From the NCBI GenBank assembly GCA_948823415.1, contig CAQKRU010000003.1, positions 7,798 through 71,797 on the forward strand: a stretch of DNA of 64,000 bases, given 5' to 3'. Under the pieces are notes generated by a model. The model saw nothing but the letters and a program-made list of their open reading frames with translations. It had not been told where the DNA came from and made no database searches. Source of the stretch: an uncultured Eubacteriales bacterium. GTDB taxonomy: Bacteria > Bacillota > Clostridia > Oscillospirales > Acutalibacteraceae. Of this stretch, positions 19,179-37,619 are shown piece after piece (positions within the stretch are counted from its first letter, which is position 1; every line of letters begins with the position of its first letter). Position numbers and translations under genes: made by a program.

Positions 19179-19204
19179 GAAAAAGGCCTCCTTTTGCTGA
19201 CAGT

Positions 19205-19234
19205 ATTATAATTCAGCAAGGAGGAACTTGTCAA
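19205..19234 (-). promoter_or_regulatory. Sigma-70-type promoter of glyQS (TTGACA-N18-TATAAT)
   Basis: Read on the minus strand: TTGACAagttcctccttgctgaatTATAAT. GGAGG and the ATG follow about 25 nt downstream. Confidence 0.7.
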
Positions 19235-19283
19235 TTGCCTAGTATATATTGAATAACCGGGGAAAATTATTGTCTTCGTTAAA

Positions 19284-19829
19284 TTATTTATGGTCTGGGA
19301 ACATTACAAATTTCAGAGAATCGCTTCTTATGCCTAATTTTGTTAGTGTATTTTTAAATTCTTCCTCCGAATACAGTTCTTTTGCGTTTTCGCTATTGGG
19401 TTCTATTACGGTATACGCATTGCGAAATGTTGGGTTAACTGTGGTGTCGACATCTAAGAACGTACACTTATCAGGATTATAAGCATTATCCCAATCTACA
19501 ATATATTTTTGTACCTGATGTTTATGATCTGGACTGTCGTTAAAAATTACAATATTATACTTATCATAAAGCTTTTCAGCATCCATATTAAACTCAGATT
19601 CAAAATGACCTGTTGGGTTAATACTAAGAGGCCTATGGAAATTGTTTGTTTCTGACGAATCTGCCTCTTCGTTATTTTGCGAATTCGCCTCAAAAGGAGG
19701 AAACTCATCGTCAAACTTAGCGCTTGCATTTAAACAACCAAAACTCAATGAAGCAATTAAGATTGTAAAGCTCAAAAAAGAAGCCTTAACCAAATTTTTA
19801 AAATTCGGGCTTAAAATAAAATTTCTCAT
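19284..19829 (-). CDS. Exported protein, island family A member 1 (unknown function)
   Basis: Signal peptide ...FLSFTILIASLSFGCLNASA, with the shared 5' leader box and RBS context. AT-rich codon usage. Confidence 0.7.
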   Translation of the reverse strand: MRNFILSPNFKNLVKASFLSFTILIASLSFGCLNASAKFDDEFPPFEANSQNNEEADSSETNNFHRPLSINPTGHFESEFNMDAEKLYDKYNIVIFNDSPDHKHQVQKYIVDWDNAYNPDKCTFLDVDTTVNPTFRNAYTVIEPNSENAKELYSEEEFKNTLTKLGIRSDSLKFVMFPDHK

Positions 19830-19871
19830 AAAAACAATCTCCTAACAAATTTTAATGAATAAAAAATTGAC

Positions 19872-19896
19872 TAATCATAGATTTTTAGCCATTTAA
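19872..19896 (-). repeat. Conserved 25-nt 5'-leader box, copy 1 (plus-strand TAATCATAGATTTTTAGCCATTTAA)
   Basis: One of six related copies in the 5' UTRs of family A genes. Confidence 0.7.
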
Positions 19897-19925
19897 CACA
19901 AAAACAACCCTCCTTACTGACTATA

Positions 19926-19955
19926 ATTATAATTCAGCAAGGAGGAACTTGTCAA
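19926..19955 (-). promoter_or_regulatory. Promoter of family A member 1; near-identical copy of the glyQS promoter
   Basis: 36 bp (19928-19963) are identical to 19207-19242, including TTGACA-N18-TATAAT. Confidence 0.65.
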
Positions 19956-19959
19956 TTGC

Positions 19960-20253
19960 CTAGCATATGGCGCAGCAACCTTTCTGGAAGCGAGTTTTAG
20001 TTTTGACAGAGGGATAAGCTTGGTTGTACATTGCGTCGACCCATCTTTTAAAAGCGGCTAGTTCATCATCTTTATCTTCTTGAGAGGCAGCGTCATCTAC
20101 TGGAGGGGAGTTCGTAAAGCTGGTTGTAGATTCACCATCCTTAGCAGTACTGGCGCTATGGTAACAGCAGATGCTTAATGCGCTAATCAAGCTAATAAGG
20201 CACATCAAAACGGATGCAACAGACTTCTTATTTTCTGAATTAGAATTTAACAT
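19960..20253 (-). CDS. Small exported protein, family A member 2; C-terminus ...KGCCAIC*
   Basis: Starts MLNSNSENKKSVASVLMCLISLISALSICC. RBS context AGGAGAttatttttATG. Confidence 0.65.
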   Translation of the reverse strand: MLNSNSENKKSVASVLMCLISLISALSICCYHSASTAKDGESTTSFTNSPPVDDAASQEDKDDELAAFKRWVDAMYNQAYPSVKTKTRFQKGCCAIC

Positions 20254-34324: not shown

Positions 34325-34511
34325 AAAAATCTCTCCTTAAAATGATACTAAAGAAATTATAATATCGGATGTAGAAAAAAGCAAGCATTTTTTGTGAATT
34401 TTACAGAGATTTAAAATTGTTGCGCAGAATTTAAGTTTATTGTATAATACTAATATATTTATTTTTAAAAATAGAAATAATTTAAACACAACACACATTT
34501 TTGCGAAAGAG

Positions 34512-35423
34512 GTGATTGCGATTATTACGGTAGAAGAGTGGAATTCGCAGAACGACGCCGTTTATAAGCCATTTTTGGTGGATAGAATCAATGATGGCGG
34601 CGAAGATTTTGTCGCATATGGCGCCAAATGTGGGAATATTCCGTGCGGAGCGATATATGCAAGGCTAGAGAAGTCCGATGTGGGCGGGCGAACTCAGGCG
34701 AACGTGACGAGCTTTTTTGTTGCCTCTTTTTTTAGAGAAAAGGGCGCCGGAACGGCTTTACTGGACGCGCTCAAGCTTAGATTGAAAGACCTGAACGTAG
34801 ATGCCATCCGGGTTAACGCGGTTACTTCGCAGGAAAACGTCGATCTGATAGACAAATTTTTGCAAAAGAGAGGATTTTCACCCGCCAGACTGCTAACAGA
34901 GGTCTATTTGTTTGATCCGAAAGTTCTGGTAGAGAAAAATAAAATCATAAAATCGGCGCTGCAGGGCAGTTTTGACCTGCCACCGAAAATATCTTTTTTG
35001 CCAAAAAACCTTGTGAGCCCAGATTTACTCGAGAAGGTCAAAAATAAGGATGGCATAGATTATCCGGATGTGCTGTCTCCGTTTGCAAATGAGTTCAACT
35101 TGGACGACGAATGCACTCAGTTTGCGATTTTTGACGACAGCGAGATCGTCGGTTGGGTGACGGCTTTTCGCGTTAAAGAGAGCGCAATCCTGTATCGGTC
35201 GCTGTTTATTCGGGAAGACTACCGAAAAAAGGCCCTAGGCTTTGCGCTTTTGGGAGAATGCATAAAAAAGCATGTGGCGAAGTATTCCGATAAAATGGTG
35301 CTTTATGCGGTCGCGTTGGATAATTTAAACGCCAGAAAGCTCTTTTCGGTCTGCTTTAAGCACTATTATAAGAGCAAAAAGTACGAATTTGAGGCGATTA
35401 TGGACCTTCGGCAAGGTTTCTAA
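34512..35423 (+). CDS. Tandem-GNAT N-acyltransferase (start uncertain; ORF open from 34440)
   Basis: Two motif-A-like segments, FFREKGAGTALLDAL and IREDYRKKALGFALLGE. The extended -10 TGTATAAT at 34440-34448 argues that the TTG at 34440 is promoter rather than start codon. Confidence 0.7.
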   Translation: MIAIITVEEWNSQNDAVYKPFLVDRINDGGEDFVAYGAKCGNIPCGAIYARLEKSDVGGRTQANVTSFFVASFFREKGAGTALLDALKLRLKDLNVDAIRVNAVTSQENVDLIDKFLQKRGFSPARLLTEVYLFDPKVLVEKNKIIKSALQGSFDLPPKISFLPKNLVSPDLLEKVKNKDGIDYPDVLSPFANEFNLDDECTQFAIFDDSEIVGWVTAFRVKESAILYRSLFIREDYRKKALGFALLGECIKKHVAKYSDKMVLYAVALDNLNARKLFSVCFKHYYKSKKYEFEAIMDLRQGF

Positions 35424-35524
35424 ACCTAATATATATATAAATTTTTGGACAAGCCCTAGCATCGACGGGCTTTTGTTATATGTTTTTTGCGGATATTACG
35501 AAAATTTTACGTGGAGGGATTGCT

Positions 35525-35767
35525 ATGGAAAACATTGAGAGGACGGTTCGAGAGGAACTTGGCAAGATTGTGGAGGCCGACGTGATGGCTGTCTCGGCGG
35601 ATGAAGACATCACGAAGCTATCTCAGATGGACTCTTTGAGCGTTTTGGAGCTTATGGACATTATTGAGGAACGTTTTGATATTGAAATTTCTCTGGGAGA
35701 AATTTCTAAAATAAGGACAATAGCCGACGTGGTGCGACTTATTTTGGCGCGGGTAAAAAAAGACTAG
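35525..35767 (+). CDS. Stand-alone acyl/peptidyl carrier protein
   Basis: 80 aa with a GGAGGG RBS. The phosphopantetheine-site context QMDSLSVLELMDIIEERFDIEI is present. Confidence 0.8.
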   Translation: MENIERTVREELGKIVEADVMAVSADEDITKLSQMDSLSVLELMDIIEERFDIEISLGEISKIRTIADVVRLILARVKKD

Positions 35768-36165
35768 CTGCGGGCCATTTATTATTACCAAAAATAGTAG
35801 GCAATTTTTGAGCGAAAAATATCATAATTTTGGCATAATTAATAAAAATATTTCTGAAACTTCTAACAAAAAATGGGTTGATTTTGTCGAATTTTGTGTT
35901 ATAATTAACACATTGGCAAAACAGTTATGTTTTTTTAAGCTGAAGGGAGGGCATTTATATTTAAACTGAACAAGTTTAAACTCAAAAGGTGCTATGCAGC
36001 AAAAAAATAAAGCTGAAATAAAAAAGGGGGAGGCGCAATTTAGCCAATAAAATTGCATGTTACTCTTTCTCGGAGAAAATAAAAATTATCTTTGGGGAAT
36101 TTTATGTGCAAAAAATTTTATTTTCAGAAATTAATTTTATTGATTAAGAAAGGACTGATTTATTA

Positions 36166-37545
36166 ATGAAAGGAAAAATTTTTAAAAGGGTAGCTAGCGC
36201 AATGCTAGGTTTGATGGTTGCATTTGCTGCAATTGGTGTAAACACCGCTTTTGCAGAGGGTGATCCTACAATAGCAGACACGAAGCCGAAGATTATTGTA
36301 ACAAACTACCAAAACGATGGAGCAGAAGCAGAAAGTTTGGTACACTGCGATGTCATCCTTGTGCTTACAGCAGACAATGATAAATTTAATGGCAAAGAAG
36401 TAGAATTTGATAGCGTGAAATACAAATTGACGTTTCCTACAAGCTTTATAAAAGATCAAGCGAAAATTTATCATTAGGATTTATTCCATACAACGGGGTA
36501 TCAACAAACATTTGCTTTGGAAGGTCAAACCACAATTAAGGGAACTATTGCAAAAACAGATCCACATGCTAAGAGCCTAAAGGGCACTATTGGACAAAAC
36601 ATACCACTTGCTAGAATTTCATTTGCAAGGGGAGAAAAACTTGCTAAAACAGTACAGATAGAAATTAAAGGTGTTGTGGAAGCATGTGCAAACGGTGAAG
36701 GTGCTGCCCAAAATTTCGTGGAGGAGCAAACCTACAATGTTACAGATTGTATACACCCCGCTGACAAAGTAACTTACTCTTTACCAGAAGATCCAGTTGA
36801 AGCATTACAGTATCACTTGATGAATTGCAGCGCATGTAATTCATCGCCAATTAAAGTCAAACATGCATATTCTGGCAACACAAGAACTGTACAAGGTACT
36901 GCTGATATAGTGGCTGGAACTTATGGAAAATGTATTTGCGGTAAAACATCGTATAAAGATATAGTTGTAAAAGGAACAGAAACACATACTCCAGAGGGCA
37001 ACCCTATTTTAGGTAACACAAATTTAAATTCTGTAGAAAAAGAGTACTTTGACAGTAAAGGTGCTAGATGCGGAAGCACTATAGCATACGACGTAACTAA
37101 CTTCTACAAAGGTGGAAAGCTAGATATAAACACAGGTTCTCCAGATACTGTAAATGATTTCTATGTTTGGAAGAACAGTGTCATTACGGTTGACGGCAAA
37201 AATGCTGCTGCCCCGGGAAAGAAAATTATCTTTGTAGCAAGAGAAACAGACTTACCAGTTGACAAGTTTGTAGAGTTATACAAAAAATTTGGTGGCCAAG
37301 GAAGCGTTATCCCACGTGAGTTTAAATACAACGGAAAAAGATATATATGTGCTTGGGAAAGTGGAATAAATCCATACTTTGTGCCAACCAGTGTTGCTGC
37401 TGAAAAGAAGAAAGAGGATCCTAAGAAGAAGGGTACTCAAACAAAGACTGGCGACGCTGCCGGAATGGTATGCCTAGCTGCTTCGGGATTGCTGGTAGTT
37501 GCTGGCTTGTACATGGAACTCATGAAAAAGAAAAAGAACGCTTAA
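36166..37545 (+). pseudogene. Cell-surface protein gene split by a single in-frame TAG (36475-36477): signal-peptide part 36166-36474, body plus C-terminal anchor 36478-37545
   Basis: Both ORFs are in the same frame with no other stop between them. ORF1 has the signal peptide MKGKIFKRVASAMLGLMVAFAAIGVNTAFA. ORF2 lacks an RBS and signal peptide but ends TKTGDAAGMVCLAASGLLVVAGLYMELMKKKKNA*. Confidence 0.6.
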
Positions 37546-37566
37546 GTTCTTCCTTCTAAAATAATT

Positions 37567-37602
37567 AAAAACCACACAGAATCTTGTGTGGTTTTTGTTT
37601 TG
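37567..37602. terminator. Bidirectional rho-independent terminator
   Basis: 12-bp stem AAAAACCACACA/TGTGTGGTTTTT followed by GTTTTG. Confidence 0.75.
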
Positions 37603-37619
37603 CGCATGAAAAATATCGA

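Follow-up and report, generated by a model that had tools for sequence, protein, structure and literature searches.

The 18.4-kb stretch between genes glyQS and pduL (positions 19179–37619) in a 64-kb window from the genome of an uncultured Eubacteriales bacterium (contig CAQKRU010000003.1; the window is the whole stretch of 64,000 nt that was analysed) is probably a hypervariable hotspot of gene turnover, belonging to the flexible fraction of the chromosome, and not a discrete mobile island. The region comprises three variable slots between four anchors and is situated at a synteny breakpoint (Table 1): slot 1 extends from glyQS to a gene for tRNA-Pro, slot 2 from tRNA-Pro to a gene for a tandem-GNAT protein, and slot 3 from the adjoining gene for an acyl carrier protein (ACP) to pduL. 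It grows mainly by local duplication of cassettes and includes one domesticated module of phage cargo, and its genes are orphans of the lineage under relaxed or diversifying selection. The original prediction, made from the letters of the window, hesitated between an old, domesticated island and a locally expanding hotspot for surface and effector genes; the differences among sister species and the tandem local families argue for the hotspot, whereas an island targeted to the tRNA and spanning the whole region did not stand up to comparison.

All the genomes compared are bins from mouse-gut metagenomes. We designate G000 the genome of the window (an assembly of 947 kb, or 0.95 Mb, in 60 contigs, 84% complete and with 2.5% contamination), whereas the other G labels, with the exception of G084, designate its congeners, among which G005, G003, G010 and G011 are sister species. 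The gap between glyQS and pduL measures 18.4 kb in G000, 16.3 kb in G005 and 8.4 kb in G003, being contained in a single contig in each of them; the assemblies of G010 and G011 break inside this gap. Genome G005 has the anchors, slot 1 and part of slot 2, and is devoid of the sequences at 23.6–29.0, 29.1–30.9 and 36.3–37.4 kb; additionally, it contains seven copies of family B, as compared to three in G000. Slot 2 spans only 0.8 kb in G003 versus 8.4–10.8 kb in G005 and G000, and its content differs in each of G000, G005, G003 and G010/G011; in G011, the DNA to the left of the GNAT gene is a block that in G000 is located on another contig (C14). Likewise, the alleles in slot 3 are 31–52% identical, and the slot 1 array was found only in G000, G005 and G003. 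The content and length of the region thus differ among sister species: G005, G010, G011 and G003 each have only part of the modules in common with G000, in a patchwork without any unit that is either present or absent as a whole.

The local paralogue families A–D recognized in the original prediction were confirmed by protein and nucleotide comparisons, and were found only in the five-species clade. Family C occurs in G010, with 65% amino acid identity, and is absent from the locus in G005, and family D has both orthologues and paralogues in G005 and G010. In large protein collections, relatives are few: six for family B2 among 5.8 billion protein clusters, and five clusters for family C among 1.84 billion representatives. 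Horizontal origin was seen only for the two-gene cassette at 23619–25454, whereas families A–D, without outside homologues, look locally born. A search of the literature on this lineage retrieved nothing specific.

Table 1. Features of the region between glyQS and pduL and related loci in G000 (positions refer to the 64-kb window unless preceded by a contig label)
Feature	Position	Strand	Remarks
glyQS upstream region	19179–19283	-	Left anchor; perfect consensus promoter at 19205–19234
Slot 1 array (family A and gene 1)	19284–23101	-	Six small exported-protein genes; shared promoter, 5′ untranslated region (UTR) boxes and signal-peptide cassettes
Slot 1 genes	19284–19829 (gene 1), 19960–20253, 20393–20737, 20856–21206, 21498–21764, 21878–23101	-	
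tRNA-Pro(UGG)	23542–23618	+	Only tRNA in the window; ARAGORN, Rfam
Two-gene cassette	23619–25454	+	Variable secreted protein, 23837/23909–24346; 226-aa membrane-anchored beta-sandwich protein, 24362–25042
996-aa protein	25695–28685	-	Nif11-like double-glycine leader, hydrophobic segment, acidic/basic tandem repeats, BspA-type leucine-rich repeat (LRR) domain
Family C	29312–30781	+	Two tandem exported-protein genes, 29312–29983 and 30080–30781
Family B	30914–32886	-	Three tandem exported K/E-rich proteins; near-identical 5′ cassette, mature parts partly unrelated
Family D	32967–34324	-	Two tandem exported beta-rich proteins
Tandem-GNAT protein and ACP	34440–35767	+	34440–35423 and 35480–35767; Pfam; conserved anchor, outside the flexible content
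Slot 3	35768–37545	+	Leader of ~400 nt, then hypervariable surface-protein gene; cell-wall-sorting-like tail
pduL (phosphate propanoyltransferase)	37620–38231	-	PF06130, E = 1e-71; right anchor
rpoB	38688–42449		Next after pduL; RNA polymerase beta domains
Other proteins with Nif11-like leader	C2:84087–87203, C17:8265–16985, C30:5080–7245, C1:23488–25350, C34:1533–2051		

Housekeeping genes flank the region on both sides (rsmE and glyQS to the left, pduL and rpoB to the right), and the anchors within it are old as well. In five distant congeners (G012, G004, G001, G009 and G013), the gene for tRNA-Pro(UGG) is found 0.16–1.2 kb from glyQS and is followed by zapA, dut, mreBCD, pbp2 and hisS; the tRNA is therefore an old neighbour of glyQS and not the scar of an insertion. 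In G000, mreB and dut map to contig C4, and contig C7 carries pbp2 and hisS; the linkage on the side of the tRNA away from glyQS was thus disrupted by a rearrangement. Of 14 congeners, 13 have the GNAT gene. It is the first gene of a GNAT-KAS-x-FabZ-ACP cluster in both G009 and G008, where fabG, fabD and acc genes are its neighbours, and in G009 pduL comes directly after the ACP gene. GNAT-ACP-pduL is an ancestral core block, present genus-wide. The prediction that tRNA-Pro, the position of which was corroborated by ARAGORN and Rfam, had been the integration target for the whole region is thus not supported, given the ancestral vicinity of the tRNA to glyQS, the core nature of the GNAT-ACP-pduL block and the lack of an all-or-none unit. 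As a separate observation on this block, the small cluster headed by GNAT occupies positions 8455–12163 of the locus on contig C22 of G009 and 7863–11561 of the locus on contig C20 of G008, both of them AT-rich congeners; in the clade of the window and in G012, only GNAT and ACP are left of the cluster, yet they are under purifying selection.

Scans for mobility genes were negative. Pfam comparisons of 20 open reading frames (ORFs) from the region only produced matches to LRR_5 (996-aa protein), two GNAT domains (327-aa protein) and PP-binding (95-aa protein), without any recombinase, transposase or phage family. Nothing significant was obtained with PHROGs for ten of the island proteins, with one marginal hit for a whole protein (E = 7e-4) in which no single matched stretch passed alone. 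This is in agreement with the predicted lack of recombinase, transposase and phage genes. Phage structural, lysis or replication genes were not found in the region with either PHROGs or Pfam, and there is no tyrosine recombinase on the contig of the window (C3). NCBIfam comparisons produced only sub-threshold matches to GNAT, ACP and bacteriocin leaders, while Rfam detected only the tRNA in the region. The original prediction had also failed to spot a repeat of the tRNA 3′ end, and a search for partial repeats (28-mer and 17-mer, with up to three mismatches) did not retrieve a second copy in the 64-kb window.

The idea of the tRNA as a target survives only for the 1.8-kb two-gene cassette abutting its 3′ end, which is prophage cargo elsewhere. 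Nucleotide homology of the cassette to other loci (L026–L029; 74–87% identity) starts at 23617–23624, exactly at the 3′ end of the tRNA, and ends near 25454, and this is the only sequence in the region shared with intact prophages of relatives. In G003, the cassette is downstream of genes for a GH25-LysM endolysin and an HTH_3 protein, and 1.8 kb upstream of the gene for a 500-aa large serine recombinase, which abuts rpoD-dnaG. In four metagenome contigs, an Amidase_3/SPOR or SPOR-domain gene precedes the cassette by approximately 4 kb; in all three that are long enough, the cassette is also 1.6–1.7 kb upstream of a serine recombinase gene, which abuts different core genes from one contig to another. 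The cassette is absent from the locus in G005, and the homology between G000 and G005 breaks exactly at the tRNA 3′ end. At 2 kb from its GNAT gene, G011 has the decayed remains of a serine recombinase (208 codons, with 70% identity to one such integrase), together with a 155-bp piece of the cassette flank. This fragment and the shared cassette indicate that slot 2 has met this phage family, and that G000 keeps the cargo without the phage.

The conserved 226-aa product of the cassette is the sole island protein with homologues across the genus, all of them at other loci, and consists of a signal peptide, a beta-sandwich and a C-terminal membrane helix. Among the structure predictions run on island proteins, this was the one that yielded a usable core, a beta-sandwich at residues 39–176 in an AlphaFold2 (AF2) model with a predicted local distance difference test score (pLDDT) of ~85–90; a fold search with this model against PDB and viral folds retrieved only generic jelly-roll or cupin-like matches (template modelling score, TM, <0.36). 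Its partner protein is highly variable (26–29% identity). Temperate phages of Firmicutes carry “morons” and superinfection-exclusion genes between their repressor and integrase genes. The cassette resembles this cargo of lysogeny modules because it lies, in G003 and in the metagenome contigs, between a gene for an XRE-type helix-turn-helix (HTH) protein and that for a large serine integrase, and because it encodes small exported or membrane-anchored proteins; conversely, in the window it stands alone, without a phage gene, and the fold matches a generic beta-sandwich only. A role in lysogenic conversion or exclusion is suggested solely by its position between repressor-like and integrase genes. 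Apart from this, the end of contig C9 of G000 (C9:25262–30495) contains holin-like and XRE-type HTH genes close to those of the cassette-bearing prophage of G003, so that another prophage, with a cargo of its own, may have left a remnant there.

These data also bear on the possibility that the whole region is an old integrative island or prophage, targeted to tRNA-Pro, that lost its integrase and whose cargo was domesticated and later expanded, which we consider rather unlikely. Such an origin would agree with the homology break between G000 and G005 at the tRNA 3′ end, where a cassette known as prophage cargo begins, with the serine-recombinase fragment and the cassette flank in G011, and with the small slot 2 of G003; nevertheless, the window lacks att repeats, phage structural and lysis genes and a recombinase, and the related prophages use serine integrases at other core genes (tilS-mraZ, argS and rpoD) instead of tRNA-Pro. 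Moreover, the edge of the cassette that touches the tRNA is the one distal to the integrase and, hence, not an att site, whereas families A–D lack phage-borne homologues and slot 1 is on the other side of the tRNA.

Most of the hotspot content appears to derive from local duplication. Nearly all the ORFs had been predicted to code for exported or membrane-anchored proteins and, accordingly, 15 of the 18 genes other than GNAT and ACP showed signal-peptide-like N-termini, and one more a double-glycine leader. These signal peptides were called with our own hydrophobicity heuristic, except that the 88-aa gene at 21498–21764 was counted as signal-peptide-like by eye, since the heuristic run kept an overlapping ORF from the plus strand. 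Paralogues of island genes were found only within the region. Tandem paralogues share promoter, leader and signal peptide, with 81–98% nucleotide identity, while their mature parts are weakly related or unrelated (repeat families D1, D3, D5, D6, D9, D11, D12 and D19). The two genes of family C, for instance, share a 105-nt 5′ cassette that is 81% identical, with 30.6% identity for the pair, and those of family D a 121-nt cassette that is 88% identical, with 34% identity for the pair (E = 2e-17). In family B, the cassette spans 153 nt with 92% identity, and B2 and B3 align only over residues 1–32 (87.5% identity; blastp, E ≤ 1e-4). Slot 1, whose genes have no Pfam match, contains repeat families D3, D6, D9, D12, D15 and D19. 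The 64-kb window contains five perfect TTGACA-N16–18-TATAAT sites, where 0.04 would be expected, and all of them are at 19.2–23.3 kb; three, at 19926, 21312 and 23167, are additional to that of glyQS. One of them, ahead of gene 1, reproduces the glyQS promoter exactly and is included in a 43-nt copy of the glyQS upstream region (19926–19968, 98% identity; repeat family D19). Together, the near-identical 5′ ends and the clustering of promoters indicate local duplication of cassettes for expression and export, and their pattern of identity suggests that gene conversion or recombination could operate at the 5′ cassettes. We found no invertase in the region that could work as a phase-variation switch.

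Non-mobile island vSa-alpha of Staphylococcus aureus contains tandem clusters of lpl lipoprotein-like and ssl exoprotein genes. It is similar to the region studied here in having tandem exported paralogues that conserve their N-terminal export signals, diverge in their mature parts and vary in copy number between strains. Unlike in vSa-alpha, we found here no canonical lipobox, no sequence similarity and no remnants of restriction-modification or transposase genes; the signal peptides of family A have a Cys near their end, outside of the canonical L-x-x-C context. Two other sequence traits deserve mention. An acidic C-terminal motif (DDCDKE-LN-VEYP-like; 30918–30987, 32336–32405 and 32965–33034) is common to proteins of families B and D with unrelated bodies, and has additional copies in G005. 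An RGD tripeptide, put forward in the original prediction as a hint of host interaction, was discarded, because we estimate that ~0.7 occurrences are expected by chance in ~4,300 residues.

The ratio of nonsynonymous to synonymous substitution rates (dN/dS), as well as dS itself, was computed for G000 versus G005. Values of dS were 0.02–0.30 for island and core genes alike (0.09–0.30 with the exception of family B3 and the 5′ end of rpoB), indicating that the shared island genes were vertically inherited since the split of G000 and G005. In turn, dN/dS was 0.4–2.0 in most of the island genes versus 0.03–0.26 in core genes (glyQS, 0.03; pduL, 0.14; 5′ end of rpoB, 0.26), with core-like values for the anchors GNAT (0.20) and ACP (0.12). 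Within the slots, the values were 0.19–1.10 for slot 1 (gene 1, starting at 19284, 1.10; the gene at 20856, 0.85), 0.82, 0.42 and 1.98 for family B, and 0.72 for family D2. Ratios near 1 for several genes, along with an in-frame TAG in the surface-protein gene, the lack of Pfam domains and a GC content at third codon positions (GC3) of ~30%, near to intergenic GC, could also be seen as traits of decaying, non-functional AT-rich DNA, with pseudogenes and spurious ORFs instead of a secretome. This possibility is very unlikely, because the 286-codon frame of B2 is kept in four variants at 73–82% identity (a chance of ~2e-10 for such a frame at this composition, as we calculate with base frequencies), there is conservation of signal peptides and 5′ cassettes, perfect consensus promoters precede genes, and several genes show dN/dS of 0.2–0.4. 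Additionally, that ORFs are kept open in stop-rich, AT-rich DNA argues against junk.

The AT-richness of the region, first perceived by eye, was substantiated quantitatively: its GC content is 35.6%, compared to 47.8% for the left flank, 49.6% for the right flank and 44.3% for the assembly, and it ranks lowest among 843 sliding windows of 18.4 kb from the assembly, ~3.9 standard deviations under the mean of the others. In a 1-kb profile, the GC fraction passes from 0.52–0.53 at 17–19 kb to 0.31–0.42 at 19–37 kb and to 0.44–0.54 beyond 37 kb. The genes in the region have a GC3 of 27–42%, with the exception, as predicted, of GNAT (50%) and ACP (48%). Nevertheless, G000 contains ~37 patches of low GC (<39%), which total ~200 kb or ~20% of the assembly, so that the low GC of the region is not unique. 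The GC3 distribution of G000 genes shows a main mode at 0.50–0.60 and a shoulder at 0.25–0.35, and the proportion of ORFs with a signal-peptide-like sequence is ~42% below 38% GC versus ~13% above 42% GC. Two further low-GC patches (C2:77–89 kb and C9:3.5–15.5 kb) fragment into scattered pieces on four sister genomes, whereas two 12-kb core segments used as controls are collinear with the sister genomes end to end, with 84–97% identity. Therefore, patch composition, export bias and fragmentation in sister genomes identify the region as the largest example of a flexible, AT-rich and export-rich fraction that is distributed genome-wide, and low GC is a trait of this fraction, not the mark of one import. 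In the clade of the window, core genes have a GC3 of ~58% and core intergenic DNA a GC of 38%, compared to ~31% and 30%, respectively, in the flexible patches. The low GC could come from an AT-rich pool, such as phages or AT-rich congeners, or, equally well, from regional differences in regime, with core DNA being pushed towards GC.

A sharp change of composition at both borders, in a fragmented metagenome bin, could also result from an assembly or binning chimera that joined AT-rich DNA from another organism to a GC-richer contig. This is extremely unlikely, given that the anchors and the shared island genes are on single contigs in independent assemblies (408 kb in G005 and 243 kb in G003), that dS of the shared island genes matches that of the flanks, and that the island itself contains a duplicate of the glyQS promoter.

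Several observations weigh against considering the region a hotspot of gene turnover. All the genomes are metagenome assemblies, with G000 being only 84% complete, and our heuristic for signal peptides is crude. It could also be that G003 lost the content of slot 2, instead of the other genomes gaining it. The region is not uniformly fast-evolving, since family A genes 21498 and 21878 (N-terminal part) show a dN/dS of ~0.2. Lastly, not only the genes but also the intergenic DNA of low-GC patches (30% GC) is below the core intergenic DNA (38%), and this 30% fits equally well an AT-rich import pool and a regional mutational or recombinational regime.

Slot 3 is occupied by a gene for a hypervariable surface protein that is intact in G005, G010 and G011 (478–486 aa; 31–52% identity to the G000 protein) and interrupted by an in-frame TAG at 36475–36477 in G000. 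The signal peptide, the C-terminal anchor and the ~400-nt upstream leader are almost invariant among alleles. This leader (35768–36165) is AT-rich and shows a mean column identity of 94% across the five species, whereas the neighbouring GNAT gene has 78% nucleotide identity to that of G003; it includes an extended -10 promoter and a 5′UTR of ~270 nt, and only matched Rfam models at chance level. It could thus be an mRNA-stabilising or regulatory leader. The tail of the protein contains a KTG-type sorting-like signal, a hydrophobic stretch and KKKK, and G000 has two sortases, by which the protein is probably anchored to the wall. Its relatives amount to ~30 clusters, none of them with more than 37% identity over most of the length. 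The family also has an invariant Cys/His cluster (C78, H80, H100, C104, C107, H116, C139 and C141, in the numbering of the 342-aa part), a constellation of residues that suggests metal binding; modelling of the C-terminal portion with AF2 gave an unusable structure (mean pLDDT of 45).

The predicted LRR domain was confirmed in the 996-aa protein from slot 2 as being of the BspA type (LRR_5, E = 7e-14). The gene contains internal repeats of 330 nt and is specific to G000 at this locus, with no counterpart there in G005. Its Nif11-like double-glycine leader is common to five other large proteins of G000 (up to 2,906 aa; Table 1), making a total of six. Since G000 codes for a single ATP-binding cassette (ABC) exporter with a C39 peptidase (contig C8, at ~9.6 kb), the leader suggests that the 996-aa protein is probably exported through it. 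The same leader was observed on several proteins of G084, another member of the family with a small genome.

We propose that a rearrangement in the ancestor of the five-species clade would have joined two old blocks, rsmE-glyQS-tRNA-Pro and GNAT-ACP-pduL, and that the junction and the adjacent intergenic gaps would then have been filled with genes for exported proteins through three processes. First, units comprising a strong promoter, a 5′ leader box and a signal peptide would be duplicated in tandem, remaining near-identical while the mature part diverges or is replaced. Second, foreign or phage-borne modules would be captured, as with the two-gene cassette at the tRNA 3′ end, which is prophage cargo elsewhere. 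Third, alleles would be replaced at a fixed position, as with the sortase-type surface protein. The products would leave the cell through Sec. The orphan nature of the genes and the relaxed or diversifying selection on them would fit a variable repertoire of surface or secreted proteins, exposed to competitors, phages or the immunity of the host. A more novel but unlikely reading is that the lineage runs a dedicated generator of secretome diversity, in which gene conversion maintains the uniformity of a portable export cassette (consensus promoter, conserved leader box and signal peptide) that is joined time and again, through recombination, to AT-rich coding sequences, either new or arisen de novo. 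If this were true, it would have spawned arrays of orphan exported-protein genes that now make up ~1/5 of a ~1-Mb genome, and the GC3 of ~58–67% in the core versus ~30% in the island, within a genus whose glyQS genes range from 19 to 68% in GC3, would reflect two evolutionary regimes in one chromosome.

The structure of the hotspot is of a known kind, in which conserved core genes enclose a hypervariable or integration hotspot, as described in Listeria monocytogenes (Kuenne et al., 2013; PMC3556495) and Escherichia coli (Touchon et al., 2009; PMC2617782). The similarities are that related genomes have different, non-homologous gene sets between one and the same pair of conserved core genes, that the locus is without mobility genes of its own, and that surface-associated proteins, including LRR proteins, are enriched. 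The differences are that much of the content here comes from local tandem duplication with shared 5′ cassettes, and not from independent insertions, and that it consists of orphan genes without a Pfam family in an uncultured organism with a ~1-Mb genome, where such patches make up ~1/5 of the DNA. The genomic islands adjacent to tRNA genes in streamlined marine cyanobacteria (preprint 10.1101/2020.12.28.424599) are reported to concentrate, likewise, the flexible genes of a small genome, with a tRNA at the island border; the region differs from them in that we identified no integrative element and in that its tRNA has long been next to the flanking core gene.

The locus shows where and how an uncultured, genome-reduced lineage of gut Clostridia renews its exported proteins, through which contact with the host, with phages or with neighbouring microbes is most likely to take place. 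It also corrects a tempting misreading: a tRNA amid AT-rich DNA is not by itself evidence of integration. Families A–D, the LRR protein with the double-glycine leader, the hypervariable, probably wall-anchored protein with its highly conserved leader and the phage-borne cassette are candidates for metaproteomic or immunoglobulin A (IgA)-binding studies.

Two minor observations concern the genomic setting. A dispersed module of ~300–380 nt, located in another low-GC patch of G000 (C2:86926–87300), has ~15 scattered copies in G005; large exported proteins probably have it in common as a leader or 5′ cassette. Across 12 congeners from one GTDB genus, the GC3 of glyQS varies from 19% (G004) to 68% (the G000 clade and G006), with the glycyl-tRNA synthetase (GlyRS) still being 81–87% identical, and whole 20-kb loci have ~30–35% GC in some congeners versus ~48–50% in others, which is a very large compositional shift for a single genus.

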